Counted from the stretch's first letter, positions 1,197 to 29,531 are shown. The stretch: DNA of 64,000 bases from an uncultured Elusimicrobia bacterium (GCA_964482515.1 CAYZXT010000009.1:16251-80250); one strand, 5' to 3'. Made by a program: numbers and translations. The notes: generated by a model from the sequence alone, not told the origin.

Positions 1197-1684
1197 CTCT
1201 CCAGCGCCTTGACGTCTTCCAGGTCCTGCGGGCGTCCGGCGGCGCGTTTCATGCGGATCAGATCGGGGACCGACAGCACCGGCAGCGACGCGCCTCCCAA
1301 CGGGAGGCGCATGACGGCCATGGACTTCAGGTCGTGGGTGATGATGACGTCGACCAGCTGCGACGGGTCGCTTGGGTTCACGAAGGACCAGGCGACCATG
1401 TTCCGCCGTTTGACGTACTCCTCGCGGAAATTGAACACGTCGGCGGCGGTCACGGGCAGGCGCGGGCGCAGGTTCAGGGAAGCGAGGGCCTTCTCCGCCG
1501 CCAGGAAGTTGTTCTTCGTCACGAGCAGCACCAGGTCCACGTCCACCGTTCCGCGGACGGCCCCGTGTAGGGCCACGGCGCAGCCGCCGGCGACGGCGTA
1601 TTTGACGCCGAAGCTCTTCAGCGCTTTGTCCAGTTCCAGTAAGAGCATATATACCAGTATATACCACCGGGCCCGGCTTGGCAA
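1190..1684 (-). CDS. Nucleotidyltransferase-fold protein (probable minimal-NTase toxin/antitoxin partner)
   Basis: 164-aa ORF with GGCAVALHGAVRGTVDVDLVLL (Gly-rich loop plus D.D, Pol-beta-like NTase signature). It forms a tight pair with the downstream small RHH-like gene. Confidence 0.5.
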   Translation of the reverse strand: MPSRARWYILVYMLLLELDKALKSFGVKYAVAGGCAVALHGAVRGTVDVDLVLLVTKNNFLAAEKALASLNLRPRLPVTAADVFNFREEYVKRRNMVAWSFVNPSDPSQLVDVIITHDLKSMAVMRLPLGGASLPVLSVPDLIRMKRAAGRPQDLEDVKALESL

Positions 1685-14164: not shown

Positions 14165-15475
14165 CTAACGATTTCTCAAAAGTTCAAGTTGCGCGATCCG
14201 GGCCTTCAGAGCCTCGTTGCGCGCGCTCATCTCTTTGATCGCGTTCAGCATGCTCCACAAAATGGGGTCGCTCCCGAGGGAGAGATAACCGTTCGGGGCG
14301 TCGCGCACCGCCTCGGGGACCACGTCCCGCACGTCCTGGGCGATGAACCCGATGTTGTCTTTGTCGGACGGCAGGTTCAGGGGGTTCCCCGCCTTGTAGC
14401 GGTAGCGGACGGGGTTCAATCGGAGGACGTCGTCCAGGGAATGGGAAAATGGCCCCGTGACGTCTTTCAGCCGCGCGTCGGAAAAAGTCTGCCAGGTCCC
14501 GCCGCCCGTCTTGCTCGCGTCCCCGTTGACGGCGAGGGTGACGTCCGGCGACGCGGTGCCCATGCCGACGCGCCGGTTGGTGACCACGAAGGTCTGGTCG
14601 TTGATGTTCACGAAGGGATCGGCGCCGTCCAGGATGAACCCGCCGGAGCTGATGTGCAGTTTCGCCAAGGGCGCGGTTCTCCCGACCCCCACCATGCCGC
14701 CGCGCACCGTGAAGTCGTCCCCCGCCACGCTCATGGCGGCGCCCCGCACCGTGAGGGTGGACGCCAGCAGCGTCAGCGACTGCGCGTTCAGGGAAGGCAG
14801 GGCGCCGGCGCCGTTCAGTTGCAGGAGTTGGTTGGACCCGTTGAACGTGTTTCCCTGCAGGGTCGCCGAGGACGAGTTCATCTCAATGTCGATGGTCCAG
14901 TAGGGCGGCCCGAGCGGAGAGGTCTGCGGCGAGAAGATGGTGGAGAAGTTGAGGAACCCAGGGTCCAGGTGGACGGTGGCGCCGTTCAGCTGGACGTAGA
15001 CGTCCCGCTGCAGTCCCGATCCGTAAAGGTGTTGAGGGGGAACGCCCGAGACGGCCTGCCATTCGGCGGAGAGGGCGTTGGGGACCGACGACAGGGACAG
15101 CCGCGGGGCGAGGACCTCTCCCTCCACGTTCACCTCGAGCCAGGTGTCCGATCCGAAGTAGACGCCCGTCAGCGTTTGGTTGAGGGACCCGATGAGGGCG
15201 GTGTAGACCCCGTTGGCGTCGGGGGCGACGGTGTGGGTCTCCGTGTAGACGGCGAACTCCTCCTTTTGCAGCGAAACCTCCGCCGTCGACGACTTCCAGA
15301 GGCTGAAGATCACGGTCCGCGGGGTCGAGACCGGGTCGCCGGCGCTGTCGGTCAGGCGGCCCTGGAAATTGAAATGGGGCGTAAAGGCGGCGGAGGCGGG
15401 GACGGCGAGGGCGAAAAGCGCGAAGAACAACAGCGATTTGGAAATTTTCAAGACGGTATCTCCGGTGTCGCGCAA
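14165..15475 (-). CDS. Secreted tail-fibre-like protein with a C-terminal S74 chaperone domain (paralog 2); TTG start
   Basis: Same architecture and an FSDARLKDVTGPF...LNPVRYRYKAGNPL... C-terminus as 12891..14150. It shares near-identical nucleotide tracts with paralog 1. Confidence 0.65.
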   Translation of the reverse strand: MRDTGDTVLKISKSLLFFALFALAVPASAAFTPHFNFQGRLTDSAGDPVSTPRTVIFSLWKSSTAEVSLQKEEFAVYTETHTVAPDANGVYTALIGSLNQTLTGVYFGSDTWLEVNVEGEVLAPRLSLSSVPNALSAEWQAVSGVPPQHLYGSGLQRDVYVQLNGATVHLDPGFLNFSTIFSPQTSPLGPPYWTIDIEMNSSSATLQGNTFNGSNQLLQLNGAGALPSLNAQSLTLLASTLTVRGAAMSVAGDDFTVRGGMVGVGRTAPLAKLHISSGGFILDGADPFVNINDQTFVVTNRRVGMGTASPDVTLAVNGDASKTGGGTWQTFSDARLKDVTGPFSHSLDDVLRLNPVRYRYKAGNPLNLPSDKDNIGFIAQDVRDVVPEAVRDAPNGYLSLGSDPILWSMLNAIKEMSARNEALKARIAQLELLRNR

Positions 15476-16669: not shown

Positions 16670-16716
16670 CTCGAAGGATTTTTATCATATGCGTTGCCGC
16701 CAGGCAACGTGCCGGT

Positions 16717-16739
16717 CCTTGTCCGCTAGGCATGGTCCC
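16717..16739. repeat. Left copy of a 23-bp direct repeat (ccttgtccgctaggcatggtccc) flanking the YhcG plus S1/P1 nuclease gene pair
   Basis: The right copy ccttgccgctaggcatggtccc lies at 19005-19026. The two differ by one indel and sit 2.29 kb apart, enclosing exactly two genes. Confidence 0.6.
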
Positions 16740-16788
16740 GGTCTGTCGGATGGGATTGTCGGATGGCACAGGCCACGGGACAATTGGT

Positions 16789-16818
16789 AAAATTGTGCAG
16801 CAAGTTGCTGCACAATTT
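16789..16818. promoter_or_regulatory. 30-bp perfect palindrome (aaaattgtgcagcaa-g-ttgctgcacaattt), a candidate operator ~30 bp upstream of yhcG
   Basis: 14-bp perfect arms. It is preceded by a direct repeat tgtcggatgg-gat-tgtcggatgg at 16743-16768. Confidence 0.4.
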
Positions 16819-16847
16819 AAAACTGCCACAGCTTGCGGCAGAATTAG

Positions 16848-17942
16848 GTGAACATTATGCCGCGTCAGAAAAAATCCCATCCAATAGTGAAACAAGCTGC
16901 TTCATCATTTCCGATGCCCGTTGATTTGTTGTCGGACATTCGAGGGTTTATTGAGACAACCCGTTCCCGGACGGCGCAGGCCGTCAATGCCGCATTGGTC
17001 ATGCTCTATTGGCGCATCGGGCGGCGTATCCAAGACGATGTTCTTAAAAACAAGCGGGCCGGTTATGGGGAAGAGATTGTGCAGACACTGTCGACACAAT
17101 TGGTCCCTGAATTCGGGGAGGGATTTGGCAAGCGGGTTCTTTTTCGGATGATTCGGTTCGCCGAGGCTTTCCCGGACGAACAGATTGTGTCGACGCTGTC
17201 GACACAATTGGGATGGTCTCATTTTGTGGAAATCATTCCCTTGGACGATCCGCTCAAGCGGAATTTCTACGCCGAGATGTGTCGGCTGGAGGGCTGGAGC
17301 GTGCGGAAGTTGCGGGAGAAAATCAGCGGGATGCTTTTTGAGCGGACGGCCCTTTCTAAGAAACCCGCCAAACTCGCTGAGTTGGAGCTGAAGAAGCTTC
17401 GCGAAGAGGACAAGCTCACGCCGGACCTGGTTTTCCGGGACCCTTATTTCCTGGATTTTCTCGGTCTTAAAGGTGTGTATCTGGAAAAGGATTTGGAAGC
17501 CGCGATCTTGCGGGAGATGGAGACGTTCATCCTGGAGTTGGGGGCCGGTTTTTCCTTCGTCTCTCGGCAAAAACGCATCCAGATCGGCGGAGAGGATTTT
17601 TATTTGGACCTTTTGTTCTATCACCGTAAACTGCGCCGCCTCGTCGCCGTGGAATTGAAATTGGGGAAGTTTAAACCCCAGTTCAAAGGCCAGATGGAGC
17701 TTTACCTTCGCTGGCTGGACAAGCACGAACGGCAGTCCGGCGAAGAAGCGCCGCTCGGACTCATCCTTTGCGCGGACAAGTCCGACGAACAGGTGGAGTT
17801 GTTGCAACTTGAAAAGAGCGGCATTCGCGTTGCTCAATATATGACTGCCTTGCCGTCTCGAAAGGTATTGGAAAATAAACTCCACCAAGCCATCCGCCAT
17901 GCGCGGGAACGCTTGGAAACCATAAAAGAATCCGGCGATTAG
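16848..17942 (+). CDS. yhcG: YhcG-family nuclease (DUF1016 N-terminal domain plus PD-(D/E)xK restriction-endonuclease-like domain)
   Basis: YWRIGRRIQDD...GYGEEIVQTLSTQL...FG.GF...LF.M..F...F...LSWSH...L and a C-terminal FLDFLGL...GAGFSFVSRQKRIQIGGEDFYLDLLFYHRKLRRLVAVELKLGKF (D-E-K core). Confidence 0.75.
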   Translation: MNIMPRQKKSHPIVKQAASSFPMPVDLLSDIRGFIETTRSRTAQAVNAALVMLYWRIGRRIQDDVLKNKRAGYGEEIVQTLSTQLVPEFGEGFGKRVLFRMIRFAEAFPDEQIVSTLSTQLGWSHFVEIIPLDDPLKRNFYAEMCRLEGWSVRKLREKISGMLFERTALSKKPAKLAELELKKLREEDKLTPDLVFRDPYFLDFLGLKGVYLEKDLEAAILREMETFILELGAGFSFVSRQKRIQIGGEDFYLDLLFYHRKLRRLVAVELKLGKFKPQFKGQMELYLRWLDKHERQSGEEAPLGLILCADKSDEQVELLQLEKSGIRVAQYMTALPSRKVLENKLHQAIRHARERLETIKESGD

Positions 17943-18011
17943 TGACCCCGTTGGCCCGTTTCTTTGGTTACTTTCTTTCGGGCACGCGAAAGAAAGTGAC
18001 ATAATGTCCGC

Positions 18012-18983
18012 ATGCCACCCCCGTGGAAACCGATATTACTTGTCGGGCTATGCCTGATATCCACCGGCGCGGCGCATCCCTGGTCCCGCGCCGGGCATGA
18101 AGCCTCCGCCCTCATCGCCGAAGGCCGCCTCGACCCCGCCACCCAAGCCAAAATCCGCGCGCTCCTCGGGCCCGGCGTCGGGCTGGACGACATCGCCCTC
18201 TGTTCCGACGCCATCAAGCGCCGCTCCGTGAACTGCGCCGGCGCCTTCTTCGTCAAGCGCGCGCCCCACACCAAGGCCTGGCATTACATCGACATCCCCA
18301 TTTCCGACGAACCCGCCGCCGGCGGCCTGCAGCAGTATTGCCCCAACGACGATTGCGTGACGGACCGCATCGCCGACCAAACCAAGGTCCTCAAAGACCC
18401 CGCCGCCCCGCGGCTGGAGAAGCAGGTCGCGCTCATGCACCTGGTCCATTTCGTGGGCGACCTGCACCAGCCGCTGCACTGCGCCGACGACAGGGACGCC
18501 GGCGGCAACGGCAAGAAGGTCTGGTTCATGGCGGGTCCCCGCGCCCGGAAGCCCGCCACCCTCCACCAGCTCTGGGACAACATGGTGGAGAAGGATTCCG
18601 TGCACGACAGGCTGGACGTCCGCGGCCTGGCCCGGTCCCTGGACGGCGCGATCACGGAGGAGGAAGCCGCGGCCTGGGCCAGGGGCTCCACCCACCAATG
18701 GACGATCGAAAGCCACCGCATCGCCCGGAACACGATCTATCCGCAGTACGCGCGGGACAAGGGGAAGGATTTGGGCAAGGACTACCAGGACGCCATGCGC
18801 CCCATCGCCCATGAACAGGTTCAAAAGGCCGGCGTCCGGCTGGCGGTGCTGCTGGACAAGACCCTGGCCGGCGTCACGGTGGAAGACCTCACCCGCGAAG
18901 CCCCGAAGCGGAAGGCGACGCCCGTTCCCACCGGACAAAAACCGCCCAAAGGCGGCGGCCCCATCCCCCTGCCGGGAAGATAG
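18012..18983 (+). CDS. Secreted S1/P1-family nuclease
   Basis: Signal peptide, then WSRAGHEASALIAE...WHYIDIPI...C...ALMHLVHFVGDLHQPLHCADDRDAGGNGKKV...LHQLWD, which are the Zn-ligand motifs of S1/P1 nucleases. Confidence 0.75.
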   Translation: MPPPWKPILLVGLCLISTGAAHPWSRAGHEASALIAEGRLDPATQAKIRALLGPGVGLDDIALCSDAIKRRSVNCAGAFFVKRAPHTKAWHYIDIPISDEPAAGGLQQYCPNDDCVTDRIADQTKVLKDPAAPRLEKQVALMHLVHFVGDLHQPLHCADDRDAGGNGKKVWFMAGPRARKPATLHQLWDNMVEKDSVHDRLDVRGLARSLDGAITEEEAAAWARGSTHQWTIESHRIARNTIYPQYARDKGKDLGKDYQDAMRPIAHEQVQKAGVRLAVLLDKTLAGVTVEDLTREAPKRKATPVPTGQKPPKGGGPIPLPGR

Positions 18984-19004
18984 GTTTTTGATGTCATTCC
19001 GGCG

Positions 19005-19026
19005 CCTTGCCGCTAGGCATGGTCCC
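19005..19026. repeat. Right copy of the direct repeat flanking the YhcG/S1-P1 pair
   Basis: See 16717-16739. Confidence 0.6.
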
Positions 19027-19190
19027 TCTTTGTAAGAAGGGGGGTAGGGTGAGGGTGGGCATTTATCGTGGCACAGCCCGGCCAAATTTCCTAATATGGC
19101 GAAGTGGTTTTCAGACGGAAACAGCGAGGGCGTCTTGAGGGAATCATGGGGCGCGTGAGGTTTGTTTTGGGAAATGATTAGGAGGATTGT

Positions 19191-21977
19191 TTGCCTTTAA
19201 GTTGGAATGAGATTCGTCATCGAGCTATTGGATTTTCACGCGAATGGGCAACGGCTGTGCGTGAAAGATCGGAATCCCAAACTTTTTGGAATGAATTTTT
19301 CCTGGTCTTTGGCTTCCCGCGGAAGAAAGTCGCCCTCTTTGAGGAACCAGTAAAGAAGTTGTCTGGGGAATATGGGTATATCGATCTCATCTGGCCGGGA
19401 ACGTTGTTGGTTGAACATAAGAGTTTCGGTCAAGACTTAAGCAAGGCTGAGTCTCAAGCTTTCCGCTATGCCAGGAGTTTGAACCAAGAGGATTCTCCCC
19501 GCTACATCATCGTTTCGGATTTCGCCCGCATCTCTCTCCACGATTTGGAAGAGGACAAAAGTATTACCTTTCCACTGACTGACTTTCATAAACACATCCA
19601 CGACTTCGCATTTATGTCCGGGTATCAGCAGCATACCTTTCAAGATCAAGATCCTATCAATATCGAAGCCGTCGAAATCATGGGTAAACTCCATGATGTT
19701 CTTGGGGACGGTGGCTACAGCGGCCATAAACTGGAGCGGTTTCTAGTCCGCATTCTTTTTTGCCTCTTCGCAGAGGATACGGGTATTTTCGAACGTGAGG
19801 AATTTCACTTCTTTATACGGAACAGCACCTCCGAGGATGGCTCAGATTTAGGGAACCATCTTGCCCGACTGTTTGACGTCCTAAACACACCAAAAGAAAA
19901 ACGCCAAAAGAACCTCGATGAATCCCTTGCAGATTTACCTTATGTAAATGGGGAACTGTTCGCGGAGAACCTTGGTTTCGCGGACTTCAATAGCGATATG
20001 CGCAATGCGCTTTTGGCCTGCACGCGGTTTGATTGGTCCAAGATATCTCCAGCCATCTTCGGCTCTCTATTCCAAGCGGTAATGGAACCGAAAGAGCGCC
20101 GCCAAATCGGAGCACACTATACCAGCGAGAGGGATATATTGAAAGTTGTTCGGAGTCTATTTCTTGATGATCTCCGCGTAGAATTTGAGGGTATCAAGAG
20201 ATCCACTGGTCAAAGTCGTAAATCTGGATTGAAACGCTTCCATGAAAAAATCTGCGCTTTACGTTTTCTTGATCCGGCCTGTGGTTGCGGTAATTTTCTT
20301 GTTATTACCTACCGTGAACTCCGTGAATTGGAATTGGAAACATTACGGGAGTTGCATCTTACAGGCACCGGTGAGGCAAAAGGATTCCAGCAGGAATTAA
20401 CGCTTGAGGAAGTAAACAGACTATCACTTGTTGATGTGGACCAACTATACGGCATTGAATTGAAGGAATGGCCCGTAAGAATCGCCGAAGTGGCTCTTTG
20501 GTTAATGGATCATCAAATGAACATCAAGGTTTCCGAGACCTTCGGCCAATTGTATCAAAGGCTTCCTCTGAAGAAACGTCCCAACATCGTGCAAGGTAAC
20601 GCTTTACGAATGGATTGGAAAGAAGTCATTCCCCCAGAGAAATGCAGTTACATCCTTGGGAACCCGCCATTTGTGGGGGCCATGTATATGGAGCCAGAGC
20701 AACGGCACGATATGCTGCTTGCAGCGAATAATTTAAATGGTGTTGGTGTTTTGGATTATGTTTCGGCATGGTATTTTGTCGCTTCGGGCTATGTAACGGG
20801 GACAAAAATAAGAGTTGGTTTTGTTTCAACCAACTCGATTACACAAGGCGAGCAGGCGGGAATTTTATGGTCTGAACTGTTTAATCGGGGAGTGAAGATT
20901 CATTTTGCACATCGGCCATTCGCCTGGGATAGTGAGGCCAGAGGAAAGGCTCATGTTCACGTTGTGATAATAGGATTTGGTGTTTTCGACATCCCGGCAA
21001 AAATAATATTTGATTATGATGCTAATCCCGGGAAACCAATCTTGTCGCAGGTTCGTAATATTAATCCTTATTTAGTTGAGGGCATGGACATTTGCATTCG
21101 TAATCGAAGTGAGCCGATTTGTAATGTTCCCAAAATGGCTTGGGGAAGCCAGCCTCGGGATGGGGGAAATTTCCTGATGAGTTCCGAGGGAAAAAAGGAT
21201 CTATTACGTAAGGAACCTGCTGCAATAAAATGGATTAGACCATTCATGGGGGCTGAAGAGTTTTTAAATGGCGTAGAACGATGGTGCCTTTGGTTGGTGG
21301 GTATTCAGCCGCAAGAACTTAACAGCCTTGTTGAAGTCAAAAATAGAGTTGAAGGTGTAAAGCAAATGCGTCTTTCTAGTAAAGCGGAAGCGACCCGAAA
21401 AAAAGCGAGCACACCAACATTATTTGCCCAAATTGCACAGCCAAACTCTGATTATCTTCTGGTCCCATTGGTAAGTTCTGAACGCCGTTCAATTATTCCA
21501 TTTGGCTTCATGTCCAAAGAGGTTATTGCCAGCAATCTTTGTTGCATAGTTTCGGATGCTACGCCATATCATTTCGGAATACTCTCATCGTCTATGCATA
21601 TGGCCTGGGTTCGTCAGATTTGTGGTAGGCTCGAATCTCGTTACAGGTATTCAAAGGATATCGTCTACAACAATTACCCTTGGCCGCAAAATCCGACGGA
21701 CAAACAGAAAGTCGCGGTGGAAGAGGCGGCGCAAAACGTCTTGGACGTCCGAAAGGAATATTCAAAATCCACGTTGGCCGATCTTTACGATCCACTGTCC
21801 ATGCCGCCGAAGCTTGTCAAGGCTCACGCGAACTTAGACCGGGTTGTTGACCTTTGCTATCGCAAGGAATCGTTCACCAGCGAACGCCAGCGCGTGGAAT
21901 ATCTTTTCAATTTATATGAGCGATTGACCGAACCGTTGGTTGCTATGTCTAGTCGGAAAAAGCGAACCAAGACTTAG
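19191..21977 (+). CDS. MmeI-family Type IIL (IIG) restriction-modification enzyme, single-chain (endonuclease, N6-adenine methyltransferase and specificity)
   Basis: 928 aa, about MmeI size. N-terminal YIDLIWPGTLLVEHKS (D...ExK nuclease motif, as in MmeI IDLFWKGKLLVEMKS). Methyltransferase motif I FLDPACGCGNFL and motif IV LGNPPFVG. TTG start with a taGGAGGa SD. The region is clearly more AT-rich than its surroundings. Confidence 0.75.
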   Translation: MPLSWNEIRHRAIGFSREWATAVRERSESQTFWNEFFLVFGFPRKKVALFEEPVKKLSGEYGYIDLIWPGTLLVEHKSFGQDLSKAESQAFRYARSLNQEDSPRYIIVSDFARISLHDLEEDKSITFPLTDFHKHIHDFAFMSGYQQHTFQDQDPINIEAVEIMGKLHDVLGDGGYSGHKLERFLVRILFCLFAEDTGIFEREEFHFFIRNSTSEDGSDLGNHLARLFDVLNTPKEKRQKNLDESLADLPYVNGELFAENLGFADFNSDMRNALLACTRFDWSKISPAIFGSLFQAVMEPKERRQIGAHYTSERDILKVVRSLFLDDLRVEFEGIKRSTGQSRKSGLKRFHEKICALRFLDPACGCGNFLVITYRELRELELETLRELHLTGTGEAKGFQQELTLEEVNRLSLVDVDQLYGIELKEWPVRIAEVALWLMDHQMNIKVSETFGQLYQRLPLKKRPNIVQGNALRMDWKEVIPPEKCSYILGNPPFVGAMYMEPEQRHDMLLAANNLNGVGVLDYVSAWYFVASGYVTGTKIRVGFVSTNSITQGEQAGILWSELFNRGVKIHFAHRPFAWDSEARGKAHVHVVIIGFGVFDIPAKIIFDYDANPGKPILSQVRNINPYLVEGMDICIRNRSEPICNVPKMAWGSQPRDGGNFLMSSEGKKDLLRKEPAAIKWIRPFMGAEEFLNGVERWCLWLVGIQPQELNSLVEVKNRVEGVKQMRLSSKAEATRKKASTPTLFAQIAQPNSDYLLVPLVSSERRSIIPFGFMSKEVIASNLCCIVSDATPYHFGILSSSMHMAWVRQICGRLESRYRYSKDIVYNNYPWPQNPTDKQKVAVEEAAQNVLDVRKEYSKSTLADLYDPLSMPPKLVKAHANLDRVVDLCYRKESFTSERQRVEYLFNLYERLTEPLVAMSSRKKRTKT

Positions 21978-22007
21978 ATCAAAAAGGTGTTTTTATGAAA
22001 AAGAAAC

Positions 22008-22036
22008 CGGTACCGGAGTTGACAGATTGACAATCA
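22008..22036. repeat. Copy 2 of the TTGACA-containing element (ccggtaccggagttgacagattgacaatc)
   Basis: Sits immediately after the MmeI-like stop codon. See 1721-1746. Confidence 0.6.
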
Positions 22037-22077
22037 GGTTCAGTACTAGATTTGATTTGTTGAAGGAGCCCCCGCAA

Positions 22078-22212
22078 TGAAAACCAAAAAGCCCCTCTGC
22101 CAAGCCATCAACACGAAAGGGAAGAAGTGCATTGTCCCTGCCGTGCCCGGCAGCAAATTCTCACCTTCCTACAGACAGGTGCCACGGCTAGCGCCGACGG
22201 GTTTCCGACATA
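22078..22212 (+). CDS. Hypothetical 44-aa basic peptide (MKTKKPLCQAINTKGKKCIVPAV...)
   Basis: Short ORF not in the track. It contains a copy of the 21-bp repeat acaggtgccacggctagcgcc also found inside 23199..24242. Coding status is uncertain. Confidence 0.2.
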
Positions 22213-22369
22213 AGAAGAAATAACTGTCCTTTTCTCCCGTTATTCCCAGCCCGTTTCCCTAAAACTTCAGATTAAATCCCGCTAAGCTCCAGATTCTTCC
22301 TCTATGATGAGGTGAGATATGGTTCTTGATGGTCGTTCACATATATGTTAACCTTGAGGAGATGGCGGC

Positions 22370-22792
22370 GTGAGCACTCATTCTGAGAAGCGGAATTGCG
22401 TGCTTTATTCCGGCCGGTTCTATTCGGCCGAATGGTATTACAGGGAGGACGGCGGGATGCCGGCTCTCGAATATTATCGGGAACTCCCTATCCATGATCG
22501 AGTGCGGCTATTACAGATCATTAAGCACCTGTGCGACGCTCCCTACGGGACAATCCTTCCCGTGACGCTTTACAGGATCGAAGATCGGGAAAACAAGATT
22601 TACGCGTTTAAGCCGAGGGACGAGCGATTCTTCAGTTTTACGATGGAGGGCGCAAGGGTCATCGTTACGAACGCTTACCGCAAGCATTCACAACAGATGA
22701 CCAAGGCGGATCTGGAGTCCTTGAAAACAGCTGTTCGCTATCGGAACGATTATTTGAGGCGCCTGAAAGAGGGGACATATTATGAAGGCTAA
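22370..22792 (+). CDS. Gp49-like (HigB/RelE superfamily) type II toxin
   Basis: GTG start with a GAGGAG SD. WYYREDGGMPALEYYRELPIHDRVRLLQIIKHL... and C-terminal ARVIVTNAYRKHSQQMTKADLESLKTAV fit the phage Gp49/HigB-type toxin pattern (W.V.YY...; IVLLH.F.KK.QKTP..EI). Confidence 0.6.
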   Translation: MSTHSEKRNCVLYSGRFYSAEWYYREDGGMPALEYYRELPIHDRVRLLQIIKHLCDAPYGTILPVTLYRIEDRENKIYAFKPRDERFFSFTMEGARVIVTNAYRKHSQQMTKADLESLKTAVRYRNDYLRRLKEGTYYEG

Positions 22793-23132
22793 AAAGAAAA
22801 TCAAAAAGGCAAAGAGCACCTTTGATCGGGAAATGGAAAACCCGGAATTCAGGAATCTTTTCGAGGAATCTTGGCCCGCCTTCCAAGTGGAAGTCCAGCT
22901 GCTGAAAGCCTTGGAAGGCAAGCAATGGTCCTATTCCGACCTCGCGAAGGTATTGCACACGCAGAAGAGCGCCATTTCGCGCGACCTGAAAGGCGGCGGC
23001 ATTCGGTCTGCTTCCATCACGCGGATCGCGAAGATGGCGGAAGCCCTGGGAATGAGATTTATCCCGTTCTGCGTCTCCGAGAAGAAGGCGAGGGAAATTC
23101 TTCCCGCTATCAAGAAACTCCTGGCCGCGTAA
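22782..23132 (+). CDS. HTH (XRE-like) antitoxin partner
   Basis: Overlaps the toxin gene by 11 nt. WSYSDLAKVLHTQKSAISRDLKGGGIRSASITRIAKMAEALGMRF is an HTH motif. Confidence 0.6.
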   Translation: MKAKKKIKKAKSTFDREMENPEFRNLFEESWPAFQVEVQLLKALEGKQWSYSDLAKVLHTQKSAISRDLKGGGIRSASITRIAKMAEALGMRFIPFCVSEKKAREILPAIKKLLAA

Positions 23133-23140
23133 TAGGGATT

Positions 23141-23170
23141 CGTGCCGGAGTTGACACGTTGACAATCGAC
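23141..23170. repeat. Copy 3 of the TTGACA-containing element (cgtgccggagttgacacgttgacaatcgacc)
   Basis: Lies between the antitoxin stop and the DUF1016-SNase start. It could also act as a -35 region. Confidence 0.6.
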
Positions 23171-23198
23171 CAGCCTATTCTTTAAGTACAATACCTCC

Positions 23199-24242
23199 AT
23201 GCCGAAAGAATCCATCCCCTCGGTCGCCCATCCCGCCTACGCCAAGCTCCGTTCCGCCGTCCACAAAACCCTCCTCCTCGGTCAGAAACAAATCGAACAA
23301 GCCAAAGTCCGTACCTACTACGAAACCGGAAAACACATCCAAGAACATATCGCCCGCTACGGTTCGCGCTCCGAGCATTACGGCGCTCAAGTGGTGGAGA
23401 AGCTTTCGGTTGATTTGGGGATTAGCACCCGGGTCTTGCGGCAGTGTGTGCAGTTCGCCCGGAACTTCAAGATTGTGAACGCGCGTTCACAATCTTTGCC
23501 GGCCCAATTGCCTTGGACGCATTACCGTCAACTGATGACCATTCCGGATGAGGACGCGCGGATTTCCCTGATGAAAAGGGCCGAGAAGTCCGAATGGAGC
23601 GAACGCCAGCTGGCGGAGAAGATCCGCCTTGAGGTGCGAGAAGCAAAGTCCCCGTCAACCAACGGCGGGCATAGTTCAATGGTAGAAAAGAAGTATCCCA
23701 AGCTCATTCCCAAGCGCGGCGAGCTTTACACGTACCGCCTCATTGCGCCGGAAGCGGTTGATGGCGAAGCGGGTCTGTGGATTGATTTGGGTTTCCAGGT
23801 GCGGCGCACCTTTCCACAAACAGGTGCCATGGCTAGCGCCAAGGGCGGACAGATCGTGGAATCCAAAAAGACGGGGGAAATCTATTCCGCGGTCCCGTCC
23901 AAGCGGACGGAGGCGGACTTGTTCACCTTCCAGGCGCCGGTGGAGCGGGTGGTGGACGGCGACACGCTGATCGTGAACGTCGACCTGGGGTTCGACACGG
24001 GCGTGCGGCAATACCTGCGGTTGCGCGGCATCAATTGCCCGGAGCTGGACACGCCGGAGGGCAAGCGGGCCAAGGCCTTCGTGGAAAAGGAATTGGGGAA
24101 AGCGCGGCGGATCATCCTGACGAGCTCCCGGTCCGACAAGTACGACCGCTACCTGGCGGACGTGTTTATTGAGTCCACCAACGGCGAACGATATCTGAAC
24201 CAGGCGCTGCTGGACGAAGGCCTCGCGGTCCGGATGGAATAG
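23199..24242 (+). CDS. Fusion nuclease: DUF1016 (YhcG N-terminal) domain plus staphylococcal-nuclease-like (SNase/thermonuclease) domain
   Basis: The N-terminal VRTYYETGKHIQEHI...GAQVVEKLSVDLGIS...LRQCVQFARNF...LPWTHYRQLMTIPDEDAR...WSERQL resembles the YhcG N-domain. The C-terminal VERVVDGDTLIVNVDLGFDTGVRQYLRLRGINCPELDTPEGKRAKAFVEKELGKARRIILTS...DKYDRYLADVFIE...NQALLDEGLA resembles SNase. There is an internal partial duplication: AVDGEAGLWIDLGFQVRRTF resembles VVDGDTLIVNVDLGFDTGVRQY. Confidence 0.7.
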   Translation: MPKESIPSVAHPAYAKLRSAVHKTLLLGQKQIEQAKVRTYYETGKHIQEHIARYGSRSEHYGAQVVEKLSVDLGISTRVLRQCVQFARNFKIVNARSQSLPAQLPWTHYRQLMTIPDEDARISLMKRAEKSEWSERQLAEKIRLEVREAKSPSTNGGHSSMVEKKYPKLIPKRGELYTYRLIAPEAVDGEAGLWIDLGFQVRRTFPQTGAMASAKGGQIVESKKTGEIYSAVPSKRTEADLFTFQAPVERVVDGDTLIVNVDLGFDTGVRQYLRLRGINCPELDTPEGKRAKAFVEKELGKARRIILTSSRSDKYDRYLADVFIESTNGERYLNQALLDEGLAVRME

Positions 24243-24305
24243 CCCTCCCAATCTTCATCCCTCCTTCAGTCGTTCTTCAGACTTAAAAAGTAATCTCTCC
24301 TCCAT
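24243..24305 (+). promoter_or_regulatory. Conserved ORF6N leader, copy B
   Basis: agccctcccaatcttcatccctccttcagtcgttcttcagacttaaaaagtaatctctcctcc, about 80% identical to copy C at 26283-26340. Confidence 0.5.
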
Positions 24306-24337
24306 GAATTGTGCATGATGAATGGGAGGACTAGAGG

Positions 24338-24354
24338 TGGTCGCAAATTGCGAC
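24338..24354. repeat. 17-bp palindrome ggtcgcaa-a-ttgcgacc upstream of ORF6N-2 (the same core as the intragenic palindrome of ORF6N-1)
   Basis: Exact match to 2036-2052. It sits ~35 bp upstream of the probable ORF6N-2 start. Confidence 0.7.
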
Positions 24355-24386
24355 CGCCTTCGACCACTCAAATTCTTGGAGGTTTT

Positions 24387-24914
24387 ATGCGAGCTGTAAT
24401 GAAAACCGAACACATTCAATCGATGATATTCCTGATTCGCGGGCGCAAGGTCATGTTGGACCGTGATTTGGCGGCGCTTTATGGCATTGCCACAAAGGTC
24501 CTTAAGCAGGCTGTTAAGCGGAATCATTTGCGATTCCCGGAGGATTTCATGTTTGAACTGTCTGCGGAAGAGCAGTCAAATTGGAGGTCACAATTTGTGA
24601 CCTCCAATTCTTCCCTGAATAAGGGACTCCGGTGGCGTTCAATGGCATTCACTGAGTATGGTGTGGCCATGCTTTCCGGCGTTCTGAAAAGTGAAAGGGC
24701 CGTTCAGGTTAATATCGCCATCGTTCGGGCATTTATCGACATGCGGCGGATGATTTCGGAAACACGAGGGTTGGCGGAGAAATTGGCGGAGCATGAGAAA
24801 AAGATCGGGGGACTGGCGAACGATGTCCGGCATATGTTCGACCTGCTACAGCCGTTGCTGGATGGACCCACTAAAAAACCCGGGAAGATCGGGTTCGGAA
24901 TGCGACAGATTTAG
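24387..24914 (+). CDS. ORF6N-domain protein (full length)
   Basis: MKTEHIQSMIFLIRGRKVMLDRDLAALYGIATKVLKQAVKRNHLRFPEDFMFELSAEEQSNWRSQFVTSNSS...[35 protein letters not shown]. The track ORF starts at 24309; the start was chosen at the ATG four nt after GGAGG. Confidence 0.7.
   Translation: MRAVMKTEHIQSMIFLIRGRKVMLDRDLAALYGIATKVLKQAVKRNHLRFPEDFMFELSAEEQSNWRSQFVTSNSSLNKGLRWRSMAFTEYGVAMLSGVLKSERAVQVNIAIVRAFIDMRRMISETRGLAEKLAEHEKKIGGLANDVRHMFDLLQPLLDGPTKKPGKIGFGMRQI
24579..24609. repeat. 31-bp perfect palindrome inside ORF6N-2 (aattggaggtcacaa-t-ttgtgacctccaatt)
   Basis: 15-bp arms. It sits at the position homologous to the ORF6N-1 palindrome, encoding NWRSQFVTSNS. The core ggtcAcaa/ttgTgacc differs from the ggtcGcaa/ttgCgacc of ORF6N-1 by a compensatory base-pair change. 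Confidence 0.8.
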
Positions 24915-25570
24915 CGGGCGATGAGGGCGTTGTACGCCCGGATGGCGGCGTAGGCGTCGTTGGCGGCGTAGAGGAGTTGCAGTTCGCTGAGGATCGGGAG
25001 CCCCCAGTTGGACGTGCCCTGCTTTTTGGATTTGAGGAAGCGTTGTTTGAAGAGCAGCGCGATGCCCACCTTGGAGCCCACGCCGCGGCCGAAGCCCTTT
25101 TCGGCGAAGAGCGTTTCGAGGTCCACCACGCCGTGGGGCTCGACGCGCAGTTTCTTGCGGATGCGCGACAGGTCGTCCCCCAGGCCGAAACCCACTTTTT
25201 TGAGGCTCTTAAAAGAGATGAGTTCGGCGGCGGCCTGGCGGCATTCCGGCTGGTTCAGCATGAACACGTAGCCGCGCGTGGCGGTGGCGAACTGGACGAC
25301 GTGGGGGCCGGTGGAGACCTGTCCTTTATGGAAGGTGGGTTTGGATTCGGTGTCGAAGCCCACCACGCTTTCGGCCGCGAGCTCCTTGAACGCCCGCTGC
25401 GCGAGGGCCGGCGTGTTCACCGCGAGGATGTCCCCGCGGCGCAGGGCGTGGAACGGCGGAAGGGCCGCCATTTCCTCGCGCGTGGGCCAGTGGGCCGGGC
25501 GCTGGCGGTTCGGGACGCGCGGCGGCGCGGAGGGTTTGAACAGTTTTTTGAGCCAGCGGCGGATGACCAA
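24911..25570 (-). CDS. 3'-5' exonuclease domain protein (RNase D / WRN-exo-like, DEDDy family)
   Basis: VVGFDTESKPTF...VVQFATATRGYVFML...KKVGFGLGDDLSRI...VVDLETL...SNWGLPILSELQLLYAANDAYAA carries the Exo I-III motifs. Confidence 0.65.
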   Translation of the reverse strand: MVIRRWLKKLFKPSAPPRVPNRQRPAHWPTREEMAALPPFHALRRGDILAVNTPALAQRAFKELAAESVVGFDTESKPTFHKGQVSTGPHVVQFATATRGYVFMLNQPECRQAAAELISFKSLKKVGFGLGDDLSRIRKKLRVEPHGVVDLETLFAEKGFGRGVGSKVGIALLFKQRFLKSKKQGTSNWGLPILSELQLLYAANDAYAAIRAYNALIAR

Positions 25571-25576
25571 GGGGGA

Positions 25577-26212
25577 TTACGGTTTCCGGAACAGCGAGGC
25601 GTCCACCGGGCCGGGGGTGAACTCGACGGCTTCCTCGGTCCGCCGGAAGACGGTGGTGTTGGCCTGGGAGGAGTGCAAAACGATTTCGGCCTTCAGGACC
25701 GCGCCCGTCTCGGCGTCCACCCAGGCGTCGACGCTGCGCACGGAGTCCGGCAATTTCACCTTGGCGTGGTAGCGCCGGGCCTTGCGGCCCGCCACTGTTT
25801 CGGTCTCGCCCGCCTCGCCGGTGTAGGCCTTCCGCCAGAAGCGGATCTCGTGGAGCTCCGCCTCCGTGGGTTTGTGGGAATACTCGGAGGGCTCCGTGGC
25901 GTGCGCGCCGTCGGGCGAAGGGGCGTAGACGATCTTTTCGAACAGGGTCTCGCCGTCGAAGAACCGCGTCACCTTGTATTCGGCGGGGGGCGCCATGAAG
26001 CGGTCCTCCCGCGCGTCGGCCTCGGTGCGGAAGCGCTTCCCGTCGGTGTGGATCCTGACGCGCTCCGCGGTTTTCGTGCCGGCCGTTTCGTTCTCCCGGA
26101 TGACCGTCCAGGTGCCGCTGAAGGGCGAGTCCTGGACGCGGCTGGGCGAGCATTTCTTGAGCAGGAAAGCGAAGGCGGCGACGGCGAGGACGGCCAGGAG
26201 CAGGTTCTTCAT
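25577..26212 (-). CDS. Secreted/lipoprotein hypothetical protein
   Basis: Signal MKNLLLAVLAVAAFAFLLKKCS. No recognisable catalytic motif. Confidence 0.4.
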   Translation of the reverse strand: MKNLLLAVLAVAAFAFLLKKCSPSRVQDSPFSGTWTVIRENETAGTKTAERVRIHTDGKRFRTEADAREDRFMAPPAEYKVTRFFDGETLFEKIVYAPSPDGAHATEPSEYSHKPTEAELHEIRFWRKAYTGEAGETETVAGRKARRYHAKVKLPDSVRSVDAWVDAETGAVLKAEIVLHSSQANTTVFRRTEEAVEFTPGPVDASLFRKP

Positions 26213-26282
26213 GGCCTGATTGTAAGAAACAACCGCCGCCGGTTCAAGGGCGGAGATTCACCCGACCCGCTTCCGAGGCCTT

Positions 26283-26340
26283 CCTCCCAATCTTCATCCT
26301 CCCTCCCGCGGTTCTTCAGAATCAAAAAGTAACCTTTCCT
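26283..26340 (+). promoter_or_regulatory. Conserved ORF6N leader, copy C
   Basis: cttcctcccaatcttcatcctccctcccgcggttcttcagaatcaaaaagtaacctttcctgcgg. Confidence 0.5.
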
Positions 26341-26530
26341 GCGGTTCCCGGAAGATTTCGCATTTCGCCTGAATAAAGAGGAATATGAGTCTTTAAGATT
26401 CCAAACTGGAATCTTAAAGAGAGGACAGCACGCCAAGTATCTGCCATTGGTATTCACTGAGCAAGGCGTTGCCATGCTCTCGAGCGTTCTCCGGAGCAAA
26501 CAGGCGGTTCAAGTGAACATCGCCATCATG
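26341..26530 (+). pseudogene. Truncated ORF6N-domain gene fragment (third paralog)
   Basis: My in-frame translation gives [64 protein letters not shown]. It lacks the N-terminal IRG(Q/R)KVMLD half and has no proper start or stop. It contains the 31-bp palindrome 26390-26420 (tctttaagattcca-aac-tggaatcttaaaga). Confidence 0.5.
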
Positions 26531-26577
26531 CGAGTTCCCCTACTCCCTTGATAGTAAGTAGCTTATAAACTACACTT

Positions 26578-26925
26578 ATGGAGGCCGGGTTGGAAATCAA
26601 ACCCCTGAAGATTGAATATTATTACGCGAGGGATGGCCGGGTTCCCTATAGGGAATGGTTTTATTCCTTGAAAGATATGAAAACCCGGCAGATTATCATT
26701 GCACGCTTAACGCGGGTGGAGCGGGGATTGTTGGGAGATTCTAAGTCCATTGGTTCGGGCGTTCATGAACTCCGGATTGATAAAGGACCAGGATATCGTA
26801 TTTATTTTGGACGACAGGGCGATCACGTCATCCTGCTTTTATTAGGCGGCACTAAGAGCAGCCAAAGGAAAGACATTGAAAAAGCCCATGATTATTGGGT
26901 GGATTATTTAAGGAGACAAGGATGA
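26578..26925 (+). CDS. Addiction-module killer protein (RelE/ParE superfamily, TIGR02683-like)
   Basis: YREWFYSL...RLTRVERGLLGDSKSIGSGVHELRIDKGPGYRIYFGRQGDHVILLLLGGTKSSQRKDIEKAHDYWVDY. Confidence 0.7.
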   Translation: MEAGLEIKPLKIEYYYARDGRVPYREWFYSLKDMKTRQIIIARLTRVERGLLGDSKSIGSGVHELRIDKGPGYRIYFGRQGDHVILLLLGGTKSSQRKDIEKAHDYWVDYLRRQG

Positions 26926-27236
26926 AGAAGCCCACGTACCATGAAGATCTCATTGAAAGCTTGAAGGACCCTAAATACGCCTTGGGGTATCTGAACGCCT
27001 GTTTGGAAGATGAGGACGAAGGGGTGTTCCTCCTGGCATTGAAGCATGTGGCCGAAGCCCATGGCGGGTTGAGCGGACTGGCGAAGAAAACGGGATTGAA
27101 CCGGGAACATCTTTTTCGAATGTTGTCCAAGAACGGGAATCCGCGCCTGGAAAACCTGCGGCAGGTGGCCGGCGCGTTCGGGTGGAAGATCCGCTTCGTG
27201 GAGATGAAATCCCCGAAACTGCGCCGCGCCGCTTAA
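26922..27236 (+). CDS. Addiction-module antidote protein (HTH, TIGR02684-like)
   Basis: ATGA overlap with the toxin gene and an AGGAGA SD. LEDEDEGVFLLALKHVAEAHGGLSGLAKKTGLNREHLFRMLSKNGNPRLENLRQVAGAFG. Confidence 0.65.
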   Translation: MKKPTYHEDLIESLKDPKYALGYLNACLEDEDEGVFLLALKHVAEAHGGLSGLAKKTGLNREHLFRMLSKNGNPRLENLRQVAGAFGWKIRFVEMKSPKLRRAA

Positions 27237-27253
27237 GCCCCGCCCGGTTTCCG

Positions 27254-27451
27254 TCAGATTTCGAACTTGTGCCGTCCCACCAGCACGCTCTCCGCGTGCT
27301 CGATCCGGTAGGCCCCCGGGTCCCGCAGGAATTCCGCCTTGCACTCCGGGCTGCAGAAATAAACCGTCCAGCCGCCGGAGAGCGTTTGTTCCGTGTGCAG
27401 CGCGAAATCGAGCTGTCGTCCGCAAACAGGGTCTTTGACCATGGCGATCAC
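27254..27451 (-). CDS. YHS/TRASH-domain small metal-binding protein
   Basis: DPVCGRQLD...TVYFCSPECKAEFLRDPGAY fits the YHS motif (DPVCGM...Y.G..YYFCS..C...F). Confidence 0.55.
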   Translation of the reverse strand: MIAMVKDPVCGRQLDFALHTEQTLSGGWTVYFCSPECKAEFLRDPGAYRIEHAESVLVGRHKFEI

Positions 27452-27604
27452 CTCTGGAAAAAAATCGAAGGGGGGTCCTGTTGATTGGTGGGAAAGCGTG
27501 GGGGCGTCTCTACTTCTAGTTTAGCAAACCCGCCGGGGGATTGGTCGCCTGGACATAAGTTGTTTTCCGGGCAAGACTTATCCGCGAGTTCTATAATACT
27601 CCCC

Positions 27605-28634: not shown

Positions 28635-29531
28635 ATGCAAAACCGACACCAAGACGATAACGAACGCCGGTTCTACGCCGGACAAGCCGTCGATCCCTCG
28701 CCCCGCATCCGCCTCGAAGACGGCAGCTCGGAGCTGACCATGCGCGCCATGGACCTGGTGAGCCCCATCGGCATGGGGCAGCGCGGCTACATCGTCGCGC
28801 CGCCGGGTTCCGGCAAGACCACTTTCCTCAAGCACATCTGCAACGCCGTGGCGAAGTCCCACCCGGAGATCAAGCTTTACTGCCTGCTGATCAACGAGCG
28901 GCCGGAGGAAGTGACGGACTTCAAGCGGAGCGTGACGGCCGAAGTGCGGGCGTCGTCCTCCGACGAGAGCTACGAGCACCACGCGCAGATGGCGGACGCG
29001 CTGATGCGGCAGGCCATCCGCGAGGCGGGCGAGGGGAAAAACGTGATGATCGTGATCGATTCGCTGACGCGGCTGGCGCGGGTGCACAACGCGCAGCGGC
29101 ATTCCAGCGGGCGCACCATGTCCGGCGGCCTGGACTCCGGGGCGCTGGAAATCCCGCGGCGGATCTTCGGCGCGGCGCGGAAGATCGAGAACGGCGGTTC
29201 CCTGACGATCCTGGCGACGGTGCTCGTGGAGACCGGCAGCCGAATGGACGACGTGATCTTCGAGGAGTTCAAGGGCACGGGCAACATGGAAATATTTCTG
29301 TCGCGGGAGATGTCCAGCCTGCGGATCTTCCCGGCGGTGGACATCGCCAAGAGCGGCACCCGCAAGGAAGAGCTGCTGTTCGACGCCGACGAGCTCGACG
29401 CGGTGCGGAAACTGCGCCGGGCGCTGTCCCAGATGAAGCCCGTGGACGCGGCGCGGGAGCTCGTCGACCAGTTGAAAAGCTATCCCACCAACAAGGCGTT
29501 CCTCGCCGCGGTCAAAAGCTCCGGGATTTAA
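28635..29531 (+). CDS. rho: Rho-like hexameric ATPase: Rho C-terminal (RecA-type) domain only, lacking the N-terminal RNA-binding domain
   Basis: MDLVSPIGMGQRGYIVAPPGSGKTTFLKHICNAVAKSHPEIKLYCLLINERPEEVTDFKRSV...VMIVIDSLTRLARVHN...ENGGSLTILATVLVETGSRMDDVIFEEFKGTGNMEIFLSREMSSLRIFPAVDIAKSGTRKEELLF aligns almost residue-for-residue with the E. coli Rho Q-loop, P-loop and R-loop region. Only ~45 aa precede the IGxGQRG motif; full-length Rho has ~150. Confidence 0.75.
   Translation: MQNRHQDDNERRFYAGQAVDPSPRIRLEDGSSELTMRAMDLVSPIGMGQRGYIVAPPGSGKTTFLKHICNAVAKSHPEIKLYCLLINERPEEVTDFKRSVTAEVRASSSDESYEHHAQMADALMRQAIREAGEGKNVMIVIDSLTRLARVHNAQRHSSGRTMSGGLDSGALEIPRRIFGAARKIENGGSLTILATVLVETGSRMDDVIFEEFKGTGNMEIFLSREMSSLRIFPAVDIAKSGTRKEELLFDADELDAVRKLRRALSQMKPVDAARELVDQLKSYPTNKAFLAAVKSSGI

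Follow-up and report, generated by a model that had tools for sequence, protein, structure and literature searches.

Genes for DUF1016 proteins are enriched at type I and type IIG restriction-modification (RM) loci, embedded in them or beside them (PMC9881135), and have also been reported on integrative and conjugative elements (ICEs) and RAGE elements (PMC4316617). In PADLOC, YhcG-type DUF1016 proteins and ORF6N proteins correspond to PDC-S02 and PDC-S05, respectively, and the PDC systems are candidates that were identified by 'guilt by embedding' (10.1101/2024.01.29.577857). A representative of PDC-S05 with a RhuM domain lowered the plating of T5 and T7 approximately 1000-fold (10.1101/2024.09.26.614923). 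Here, genes of both kinds were analyzed in a stretch of 64,000 nucleotides from an uncultured Elusimicrobia bacterium (GCA_964482515.1 CAYZXT010000009.1:16251-80250; "the window"), where they lie at 16.7-27.3 kb together with an MmeI-family RM enzyme and two toxin-antitoxin (TA) pairs. We consider it probable that this region is a chromosomal defense-gene hotspot, assembled piecemeal through the gain, duplication, and erosion of small cassettes among native genes of the host backbone, namely those for an S1/P1 nuclease (probably secreted), a YHS protein, and a DEDDy exonuclease together with its exported neighbor. The cassettes, of one or two genes each, would have arrived separately and not as one island. 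The new elements of the region are a variant of the DUF1016 family with a staphylococcal-nuclease (SNase) effector, and conserved, covarying palindromes inside the DUF1016 and ORF6N genes.

The GC content of the window was approximately 62% on average. A 1-kb profile showed 44-48% GC at 19-22 kb and intermediate values onward to 27 kb, and a 300-nt profile showed that this low-GC signal was interrupted at 18.0-19.0, 24.9-26.2, and 27.1-27.4 kb, each with 63-71% GC. Foreign and native genes were told apart by the GC content of third codon positions (GC3) of each gene and by a codon index, with 42 genes outside the region as the background (median GC3, 0.838; robust standard deviation, 0.066). 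The genes for YhcG (z = -3.0), the MmeI-like enzyme (-5.8), and ORF6N (-4.0), and weakly that for DUF1016-SNase (-1.4), were atypical, as were the toxin and antitoxin genes of the first pair, TA1 (-3.3 and -2.2), and of the second pair, TA2 (-5.5 and -2.2). The genes for the S1/P1 nuclease (+0.5), the exonuclease (+0.5), the exported protein (+1.3), and the YHS protein (-0.8) were native-like. From this mosaic of per-gene composition, the region consists of three foreign patches on the same strand, with native-looking genes between them, and not of one island:

Patch 1, approximately 16.70-17.95 kb: a DUF1016 relic and a YhcG-type PD-(D/E)XK nuclease
16914-17942, plus strand: YhcG-type nuclease (DUF1016_N plus PD-(D/E)XK YhcG_C); alternative GTG start at 16848; GC3 0.64
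18012-18983, plus strand: S1/P1 nuclease of native composition, with a signal peptide at its N-terminus
Patch 2, approximately 19.05-24.91 kb: an intact MmeI-family enzyme, a DUF1016-SNase relic, a HigBA-like pair, DUF1016_N-SNase, and ORF6N
19191-21977, plus strand: intact MmeI-family type IIL/IIG RM enzyme; TTG start, 46% GC
22370-22792, plus strand: probable HigB/Gp49-like toxin (TA1) of 140 amino acids; 11-nt overlap with the next gene
22782-23132, plus strand: antitoxin-like helix-turn-helix (HTH; HTH_3/HTH_37) partner (TA1)
23199-24242, plus strand: DUF1016_N-SNase nuclease, with a helical N-domain, a beta middle domain, and a C-terminal SNase fold
24387-24914, plus strand: ORF6N-domain protein (PADLOC PDC-S05); longest open reading frame (ORF) from a TTG at 24309
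24911-25570, minus strand: DEDDy 3'-5' exonuclease (RNase D-like, single domain; DNA_pol_A_exo1); native composition
25577-26212, minus strand: exported protein, upstream of the exonuclease with a 6-nt gap; native composition
Patch 3, approximately 26.28-27.24 kb: an ORF6N relic and a RelE/ParE-HI1419/HI1420 pair
26339-26536, plus strand: ORF6N relic, N-terminus deleted and C-terminus cut by the TA2 cassette; a perfect palindrome with 14-nt arms is kept at 26390-26420
26578-26925, plus strand: RelE/ParE-family toxin (TA2; TIGR02683, upstrm_HI1419)
26922-27236, plus strand: HI1420-type antidote (TA2; TIGR02684), called with 104 amino acids; longest ORF from 26895
27254-27451, minus strand: YHS-domain protein of near-native composition, probably beyond the end of the foreign DNA

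All of these genes had been listed in a preliminary description of the sequence, and hidden Markov model searches (Pfam, PADLOC, and NCBIfam) matched them. That description took the region as a contiguous block of lower GC and a defense island. The accumulation of defense-type, horizontally acquired genes was real, and the plot of GC and codon usage along the window contained the low-GC signal, broken into patches; there was no single compositional island, since only some of the genes were atypical in GC3 and the S1/P1, exonuclease, exported-protein, and YHS genes were native-like. The description further proposed that the uncharacterized members were candidates for one undescribed system. A contiguous island acquired as a unit, in which DUF1016-SNase, ORF6N, the exonuclease, and the exported protein form a multi-gene system, would agree with the plus-strand orientation and short gaps of 9 of the 13 genes, with the adjacency of DUF1016-SNase and ORF6N, with the presence of ORF6N within 5-8 kb of a DUF1016-SNase homologue at two other loci (L090 and L091), and with the intragenic palindromes common to both families. 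We regard this as very improbable, and it is already largely refuted: besides the mosaic composition, the exonuclease and the exported protein are native and on the other strand, and the exonuclease was apart from the exported protein and the other island genes in 84 loci. ORF6N was not next to DUF1016-SNase in L089, L090, L091, L301, or L303 and stands alone at 1839-2375 in the window, and in cultured bacteria members of either family are found singly next to integrases. Each of the members was found on its own elsewhere, with nothing linking them. In PADLOC, the pieces fell under single-gene systems, known or candidate (type IIG RM, PDC-S02, and PDC-S05), and DUF1016_N-SNase was without a model.

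The repeats at junctions noted in the preliminary description were real. Three pairs were found, and at least two belong to duplicated, decayed gene copies:

16712-16754 and 18999-19041: 43-nt junction repeat with a 17-nt exact core, CCGCTAGGCATGGTCCC; copy 1 is at the left edge of patch 1
16790-16818, plus strand: palindrome AAATTGTGCAGCAA g TTGCTGCACAATTT, perfect with 14-nt arms, which reads KIVQQVAAQF, a DUF1016_N motif
22010-22035 and 23142-23167, plus strand: 26-nt promoter-like repeat (TTGACA-NN-TTGACAATC)
22162-22200, plus strand: 39-nt coding relic of DUF1016_N-SNase (TFLQTGATASADG compared with TFPQTGAMASAKG), downstream of copy 1 of the 26-nt repeat
24244-24301 and 26283-26340, plus strand: 58-nt element upstream of the ORF6N cassette; the copies are 83% identical

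The 17-nt core had two exact copies in the window, where 0.22 matches were expected at up to three mismatches. Copy 1 of the 26-nt repeat lies just after the MmeI stop codon, and copy 2 lies 32 nt upstream of the DUF1016_N-SNase start. The 58-nt pair, together with an 88-nt coding match, represents a second, decayed ORF6N copy. The element at 16790-16818 matched the intragenic palindromes of other DUF1016 genes (e.g., L288 and L292) in both sequence and peptide, and we take it as the likely relic of an older DUF1016 gene. Taken together, these relics and repeats point to a piecemeal turnover of small cassettes by repeated gain, duplication, and erosion. The marks of an integrative island were lacking: there was no tRNA gene in the window and no integrase or transposase among approximately 50 predicted proteins scanned with Pfam, and the direct repeats bounded sub-segments only.

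The nearest relatives of the proteins were in metagenome-assembled genomes of Elusimicrobiota and Omnitrophota. Identical proteins were found only in the Logan assemblies SRR14787577, SRR14787578, and SRR14787580 and in one 91-kb NCBI contig, with a constant gene order. A scan of genome contigs with the short-form Rho protein encoded to the right of the region yielded distant Rho genes only, and a scan of metagenomes with the S1/P1 protein gave no match.

The assignment of the exonuclease to the backbone rests on its distribution. Its homologues numbered more than 8000, many of them 50-76% identical and named ribonuclease D by their sources. In 84 exonuclease loci there was no exported protein, S1/P1, YhcG, MmeI, TA gene, or DUF1016-SNase, and one ORF6N gene was approximately 10 kb away. 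In L093, an exonuclease gene (65% identity) and a short-form Rho gene (73% identity) are divergently oriented with 159 bp between them, and in L092 and L094 the exonuclease adjoins homologues of window genes at 38-40 kb. In the window, the exonuclease and Rho genes are 3 kb apart, with the exported protein, the ORF6N relic, TA2, YHS, and an outer-membrane-like protein between them. Because of the 84 loci without the other island genes and of the Rho neighborhood in L093, we conclude that the exonuclease is a conserved host backbone gene and not the defense-system candidate it was first thought to be. The idea that the exonuclease and the exported protein form a conserved pair was rejected (0 of 84 loci). 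The exported protein, which had been called a lipoprotein, has an N-terminal signal or transmembrane segment and no canonical lipobox. The short-form Rho paralogue at 28635-29531, to the right of the hotspot, consists of the ATPase domain only and scored 330 bits with NF041509, below the cut-off. The S1/P1 nuclease had likewise been counted as an island member; its composition is native, and since it carries an N-terminal signal peptide, it is probably secreted or periplasmic and would act outside the cytoplasm.

Two nucleases of the region share the DUF1016 N-domain. The YhcG-type protein scored 157 bits with DUF1016_N and 163 bits with YhcG_C in Pfam, so that both domains of this architecture are present, and it matched the PDC-S02 profile PDLC04807 end to end (E = 4e-130). 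In contrast, DUF1016_N-SNase shares only the N-domain with PDC-S02 (profile positions 17-153 of 351), has a beta middle domain and an SNase fold in place of PD-(D/E)XK, and has no model in PADLOC 2.0.0. It is best described as a relative of PDC-S02 with a swapped nuclease effector, a variant and not a member. The search for DUF1016_N-SNase homologues returned 1053 sequences, mostly from uncultured Omnitrophota and Elusimicrobiota; more than 100 of the best 120 had both Pfam domains. The equivalents of SNase D21, R35, E43, and R87 (D255, R274, E282, and R317) were invariant in an alignment of 40 sequences. An AlphaFold (AF2) model of the protein, with a mean predicted local distance difference test (pLDDT) score of 88.8, showed a six-helix N-domain, a disordered linker, the beta middle domain, and the SNase fold. 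The SNase domain, with pLDDT above 90, superposed on SNase structures with a target-normalized template modeling (TM) score of 0.67 and a root mean square deviation of approximately 2.4 Å.

When the N-domain was modeled alone (pLDDT, 89.3), the top 30 structural matches were almost all HTH domains of ParB, Noc, Spo0J, SopB, and KorB, a consistent run that also included VirB. A palindrome of approximately 26 bp inside the coding sequence of the DUF1016 gene itself is a further likeness to ParB/Spo0J, since a parS site inside the parB/spo0J gene is a precedent for an in-gene cis site. The differences are that the structural matches were weak, with E values of at least 0.04, and that the DUF1016_N protein has no CTPase/ParB N-domain; moreover, the palindrome is gene-specific in DUF1016 genes, with no shared parS sequence, and its role as a binding site is putative. 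Both DUF1016 proteins would combine a helical, ParB-HTH-like DNA-binding N-domain with a nuclease effector, PD-(D/E)XK or SNase, and may act as stand-alone DNA-targeting modules. A search by sequence found no solved structure for YhcG or ORF6N. Defense genes were present within 5 kb of the DUF1016_N-SNase homologue in all five other independent contexts:

L089: Vsr, a C5 methylase, and Eco29kI
L090: AbiEii; an EcoRI-type methylase with GmrSD
L091: a IIG-like methylase
L301: HamA plus a helicase (Hachiman)
L303: type I hsdS/hsdM, Abi_2, and ThsB-TIR

A phage origin of DUF1016-SNase was considered and rejected, because IMG/VR gave matches to SNase only and no full-length homologue.

The ORF6N domain of the intact gene scored 100 bits (Pfam cut-off, 27.8), and three PDC-S05 models matched with E values from 1e-37 to 1e-52. 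The window protein consists of ORF6N and a short C-terminal tail and differs from PDC-S05 in that its match to the 306-position model is confined to the first half; it may be a dimeric DNA-binding protein. Three ORF6N copies had been counted in the region. There are three in the window, and the region itself has one intact gene and one relic:

1839-2375, plus strand: third ORF6N paralogue, outside the region; low GC3, PDC-S05/ORF6N match, palindrome at 2030-2056

The interval 1190-2375 is a second small accessory spot, in which a DUF6036 nucleotidyltransferase gene (1190-1684, minus strand, native GC) is divergent from this paralogue; a DUF6036 homologue also adjoins the exonuclease in L099.

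The DUF1016 and ORF6N genes have in common a palindrome within the coding sequence. A census of perfect palindromes with arms of at least 10 nt and loops of at most 5 nt across the 64-kb window found seven, compared with 0.37 expected, and six of the seven were in ORF6N or DUF1016 sequence. The sites in the intact genes of the region and in other loci were:

17076-17100, plus strand: first YhcG quasi-palindrome, which codes IVQTLSTQ; its right arm recurs exactly, as a 13-mer, in the second site
17184-17208, plus strand: second YhcG palindrome (ATTGTGTCGAC gct GTCGACACAAT), centered 18 nt 5' of the W codon in the WxH motif
23469-23496, plus strand: DUF1016_N-SNase palindrome, perfect (14+14) with no loop, which codes KIVNARSQS, modeled as a loop of low confidence
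24579-24609, plus strand: ORF6N palindrome, perfect with 15-nt arms, which codes NWRSQFVTSN
Further ORF6N palindromes: L090 271-295; L091 14028-14054; L098 20343-20369; L182-L261; L262 at approximately 6199; L264 at approximately 6205 and 6256
Further DUF1016 palindromes: L089 8263-8288; L090 8263-8288; L091 8281-8306; L265-L299; L301; L303

For ORF6N, we examined the three copies in the window, those of L090, L091, and L098, 15 distinct genes of viral contigs, and those of Bacteroides ovatus and Sulfuricurvum. Every copy had a perfect or near-perfect palindrome (12-15-nt arms, 25-31 nt) over the codons of (L/W)RSQ(I/F)xT, centered on CAA-W-TTG; the arm sequences varied between copies, and the changes were compensating. 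Among 21 distinct sequences, 89.5% of the cells were paired, compared with 74.5% after shuffling, and 10 of the 15 pairs had changed on both sides. The covariation score was 0.365 against 0.131, a value reached in none of 500 shuffles, and slid controls gave 0.10 or less. When synonymous codons were resampled with the peptides fixed, the summed pairing was 143.7 ± 7.9, compared with 278 observed. The calculated stability of the hairpins was -17 to -23.5 kcal/mol. In the ORF6N gene of L090 (75-599), the palindrome lies in a different reading frame (QVVAICDHL) from that of the other copies and is yet perfect, which suggests that the DNA rather than the peptide is conserved. The motif encoded by the palindrome is tandemly duplicated in some ORF6N proteins (L264 6010-6561; L091 13807-14340), and in B. 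ovatus ORF6N, LRSQIATLEK is followed by LRSQTVTSRW, with palindromes of 11/15 and 13/15.

For YhcG, 20 distinct genes from plasmids and viral contigs were compared, with the center set by protein homology alone, again 18 nt on the 5' side of the WxH tryptophan codon; L282 and L294, whose strongest palindrome was elsewhere, were left out of the set. In these genes, 95% of the cells were paired against 68.8%, 10 of 13 pairs had changed on both sides, and the covariation score of 0.689 against 0.21 was again reached in none of 500 shuffles. In both YhcG-type and SNase-fused genes, the DUF1016 palindromes had ATT...AAT outer bases and were just 5' of the WxH motif. Each of six DUF1016-SNase genes carried a loopless palindrome with 12-13 of 13 positions paired, in six different sequences, and the next-best palindrome of each gene had at most 10/13; the SNase-fused palindrome sits over a poorly conserved loop of low pLDDT. 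E. coli K-12 yhcG (b3220) contains three tandem 39-nt units with quasi-palindromes of 11-12/13 (AATTnnnCAGACnnGTCTGnnnAATT), which code a 13-residue peptide three times (L300 10130-10234, corresponding to NC_000913.3 at approximately 3368129-3368233). In NC_000913.3, the centers of the three sites are at 3368142, 3368181, and 3368220.

Since the symmetry is kept by compensatory change beyond the needs of the peptide, and independently of protein constraint, it points to selection on the DNA or the RNA. A regulatory RNA hairpin is a further alternative here. Strand-specific G-U wobble, which would be a sign of such a hairpin, showed no consistent bias: ORF6N had 4 GT against 11 AC, and YhcG had 18 GT against 3 AC, but 14 of the 18 GT were at the two end pairs. 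Without a strand-specific bias, the data favor no RNA hairpin over a DNA site. Most likely, each DUF1016 or ORF6N gene would hold its own conserved palindrome as a cis site for the encoded dimeric protein, and binding by that protein would serve autoregulation or loading in cis. We put forward only tentatively that the genes of DUF1016_N and ORF6N, two widespread DNA-binding families found in defense islands and on mobile elements, are built around a conserved cis-acting palindrome in the sequence coding for the DNA-binding domain. Other readings of the palindromes did not hold. A second gene-specific copy, as in an operator pair, was found only in the window and L268, and CRP-like, Xer/dif-like, and attC-like sites were a misfit in spacing and arm arrangement. 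Among the papers searched, none connected a palindrome with DUF1016, YhcG, or ORF6N.

In the quasi-palindrome correction model, a change in one arm can be transferred to the other by template switching, with no selection involved, and the palindromes might therefore be functionless, either maintained in this way or selfish in-frame inserts. The pseudogene relic with its perfect palindrome at 26390-26420 and the tandem unit of E. coli yhcG would agree with this, as would the protein-coding palindromic elements of Rickettsia (RPEs), which PMC4316617 cites. RPEs resemble the present palindromes in that palindromic DNA is read through in frame in coding genes; they differ in being 100-150 nt long and present at many unrelated sites, whereas the palindromes here are 25-31 nt at one homologous position, with compensatory changes. 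We consider a lack of function quite unlikely, because homologues of several phyla that share only 30-65% identity carry the palindrome at the same codons, no other palindrome of each gene is strong (the second best having at most 10/13), and the site is kept in L090 although the frame differs. Furthermore, two unrelated DNA-binding families share the feature, which is absent from the MmeI gene, the TA genes, and 50 kb of flanking genes.

The neighborhoods of these genes in cultured bacteria bear on another explanation, that DUF1016 and ORF6N are housekeeping or regulatory genes of mobile elements (recombination-directionality, partition-like, or addiction) with the palindromes as recombination or cassette-exchange sites, and that they are in the hotspot merely because mobile DNA accumulates there. 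An integrase gene directly precedes ORF6N in a plasmid of Legionella (NZ_CP004007.1) and in a conjugative transposon of Bacteroides, and a Tn3 transposase gene is beside ORF6N in Sulfuricurvum. In a Klebsiella plasmid (NZ_CP099744.1), the YhcG gene and an integrase gene overlap, and in Singulisphaera the YhcG gene adjoins a tyrosine recombinase gene. The occurrence of DUF1016 on ICEs and RAGE elements agrees with this explanation, as do the palindromes kept by two of the three relics in the window (16790-16818 and 26390-26420), the threefold tandem unit of yhcG, and the lack of phage protection by the PDC-S02 representative. Against it, no recombinase was found near these genes in the window, L089, L090, L091, L301, or L303, where the neighbors were RM, Abi, Hachiman, and TIR genes. 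The nuclease active sites seem intact, which argues for DNA cleavage; the arms are 0-3 nt apart, compared with the 6-8-bp spacers of tyrosine-recombinase core sites; and the PDC-S05 representative was protective. Both the role in mobile elements and the passive accumulation seem unlikely to us, though not negligible. The neighborhoods with an integrase or transposase gene were L263 4674-6897, L264 4118-6561, L262 2936-6564, L266 1760-4026, and L265 2941-5256; in the conjugative transposon of B. ovatus, JAB and ArdA genes come after ORF6N.

Several observations weigh against our account of a piecemeal hotspot that contains DNA-targeting modules with cis sites. The 43-nt repeats bracket the low-GC YhcG gene together with the native-GC S1/P1 gene. 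The exact proteins are confined to one population with the same gene order, and with no close sister genome found, the presence or absence of the patches was deduced from composition and one distant relative. The exported protein could be an old, ameliorated acquisition, since it has no relative beside the exonuclease in other loci. In the SNase domain, the equivalent of the Ca ligand D40 is N279, a position that is Asp in most relatives and Asn in a minority, and the matches of the N-domain to ParB-type HTH folds were weak (E = 0.04-1; TM score, approximately 0.5). The palindromic site is single-copy in most YhcG genes, and its binding by the encoded protein, the most likely role, is one that we only infer. 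PDC-S02 and PDC-S05 have only candidate status, from 'guilt by embedding'; the protective PDC-S05 representative carried a Virulence_RhuM domain, which sets it apart from the window protein, and in the only phage assay of PDC-S02 that the literature search turned up, the one representative was not among the protective ones against T4, T5, and T7 in E. coli (10.1101/2024.09.26.614923).

The remaining foreign genes belong to described families. The MmeI-like gene was AT-rich with a TTG start, as first described; the start is 6 nt after AGGAGG, and the N-terminus of the product aligned to MmeI residue 1. The protein was colinear with MmeI (PDB ID: 5HR4) over 920 residues (E = 1e-302), with all five MmeI Pfam domains in order (MmeI_N, helicase spacer, Mtase, TRD, and C-terminal; E = 1e-26 to 1e-88), and covered positions 3-910 of 912 of the PADLOC REase_MTase_IIG profile. 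The D-X-EXK (D...EHK) nuclease motif was present (GYIDLIWPGTLLVEHKS compared with GFVDLFWPGILLIEMKS in MmeI), and LGNPPFVG, containing the NPPF methyltransferase motif IV, was identical; as for MmeI, the enzyme is one polypeptide with no separate methylase gene nearby. Enzymes of the MmeI family are single polypeptides that methylate one strand of an asymmetric site and cleave unmodified DNA approximately 20 bp (20/18 nt) away. By analogy with the family, the window enzyme would methylate one strand of its site and cut unmodified incoming DNA. At positions described as specificity determinants of MmeI, the window enzyme has L for E751 and L for A774 and keeps E806, R808, and R810; because these residues partly differ, its recognition sequence is probably not TCCRAC.

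As for the TA pairs, TA1 resembles HigB/HigA pairs in its toxin-first order, 11-nt overlap, and HTH partner, and differs in that its 140-amino-acid toxin is below the Gp49 cut-off. The Pfam scores for this Gp49/HigB and HTH pair of the preliminary description were weak, at or below the curated cut-offs (Gp49, 18.2 bits against 23.9; HTH_3, 23.4 against 23). The second pair, TA2, was confirmed as RelE/ParE-HI1419 plus HI1420, since both genes passed the NCBIfam cut-offs (114.5 bits against 62.85 and 63.3 against 53.7); they overlap by 4 nt with the 104-amino-acid start. Either pair may serve in stabilization of its patch or in abortive infection.

Outside the region, further features of the window were:

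12891-14150 and 14165-15475, minus strand: tandem paralogues, 56% identical, with C-terminal Peptidase_S74 (intramolecular chaperone of fiber proteins) and a faint match to the N-domain of a Bdellovibrio mosaic adhesive trimer
40873-41940: Acetyltransf_6 (FemAB-like) gene of low GC3 (z = -3.8)
45762-45922, minus strand: cobalamin riboswitch at the 5' end of a 680-amino-acid ORF, 43729-45771; score of 32.7 bits, slightly over the gathering threshold
60435-63306: ECF sigma factor gene of low GC3 (z = -3.5), then a PAS/HisKA_2 kinase gene (z = -2.2)

The hotspot itself is ordinary, and it serves as an instructive case of turnover at the level of cassettes in which no recombinase was found. The SNase family reveals the DUF1016 N-domain as a portable module able to carry different nuclease effectors, and DUF1016_N-SNase is a widespread, unstudied architecture of more than 100 sequence clusters that PADLOC 2.0.0 does not list. 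Of the unexplained genes embedded in RM and BREX loci, those for DUF1016/YhcG and ORF6N rank among the most common, and the intragenic palindromes provide for them a concrete cis-site hypothesis that can be addressed in E. coli K-12 yhcG. If the protein binds or cuts its site, or if the site drives cassette exchange, this would be an undescribed, self-referential arrangement of gene and site, and it would explain the control or movement of these orphan 'embedded' genes.

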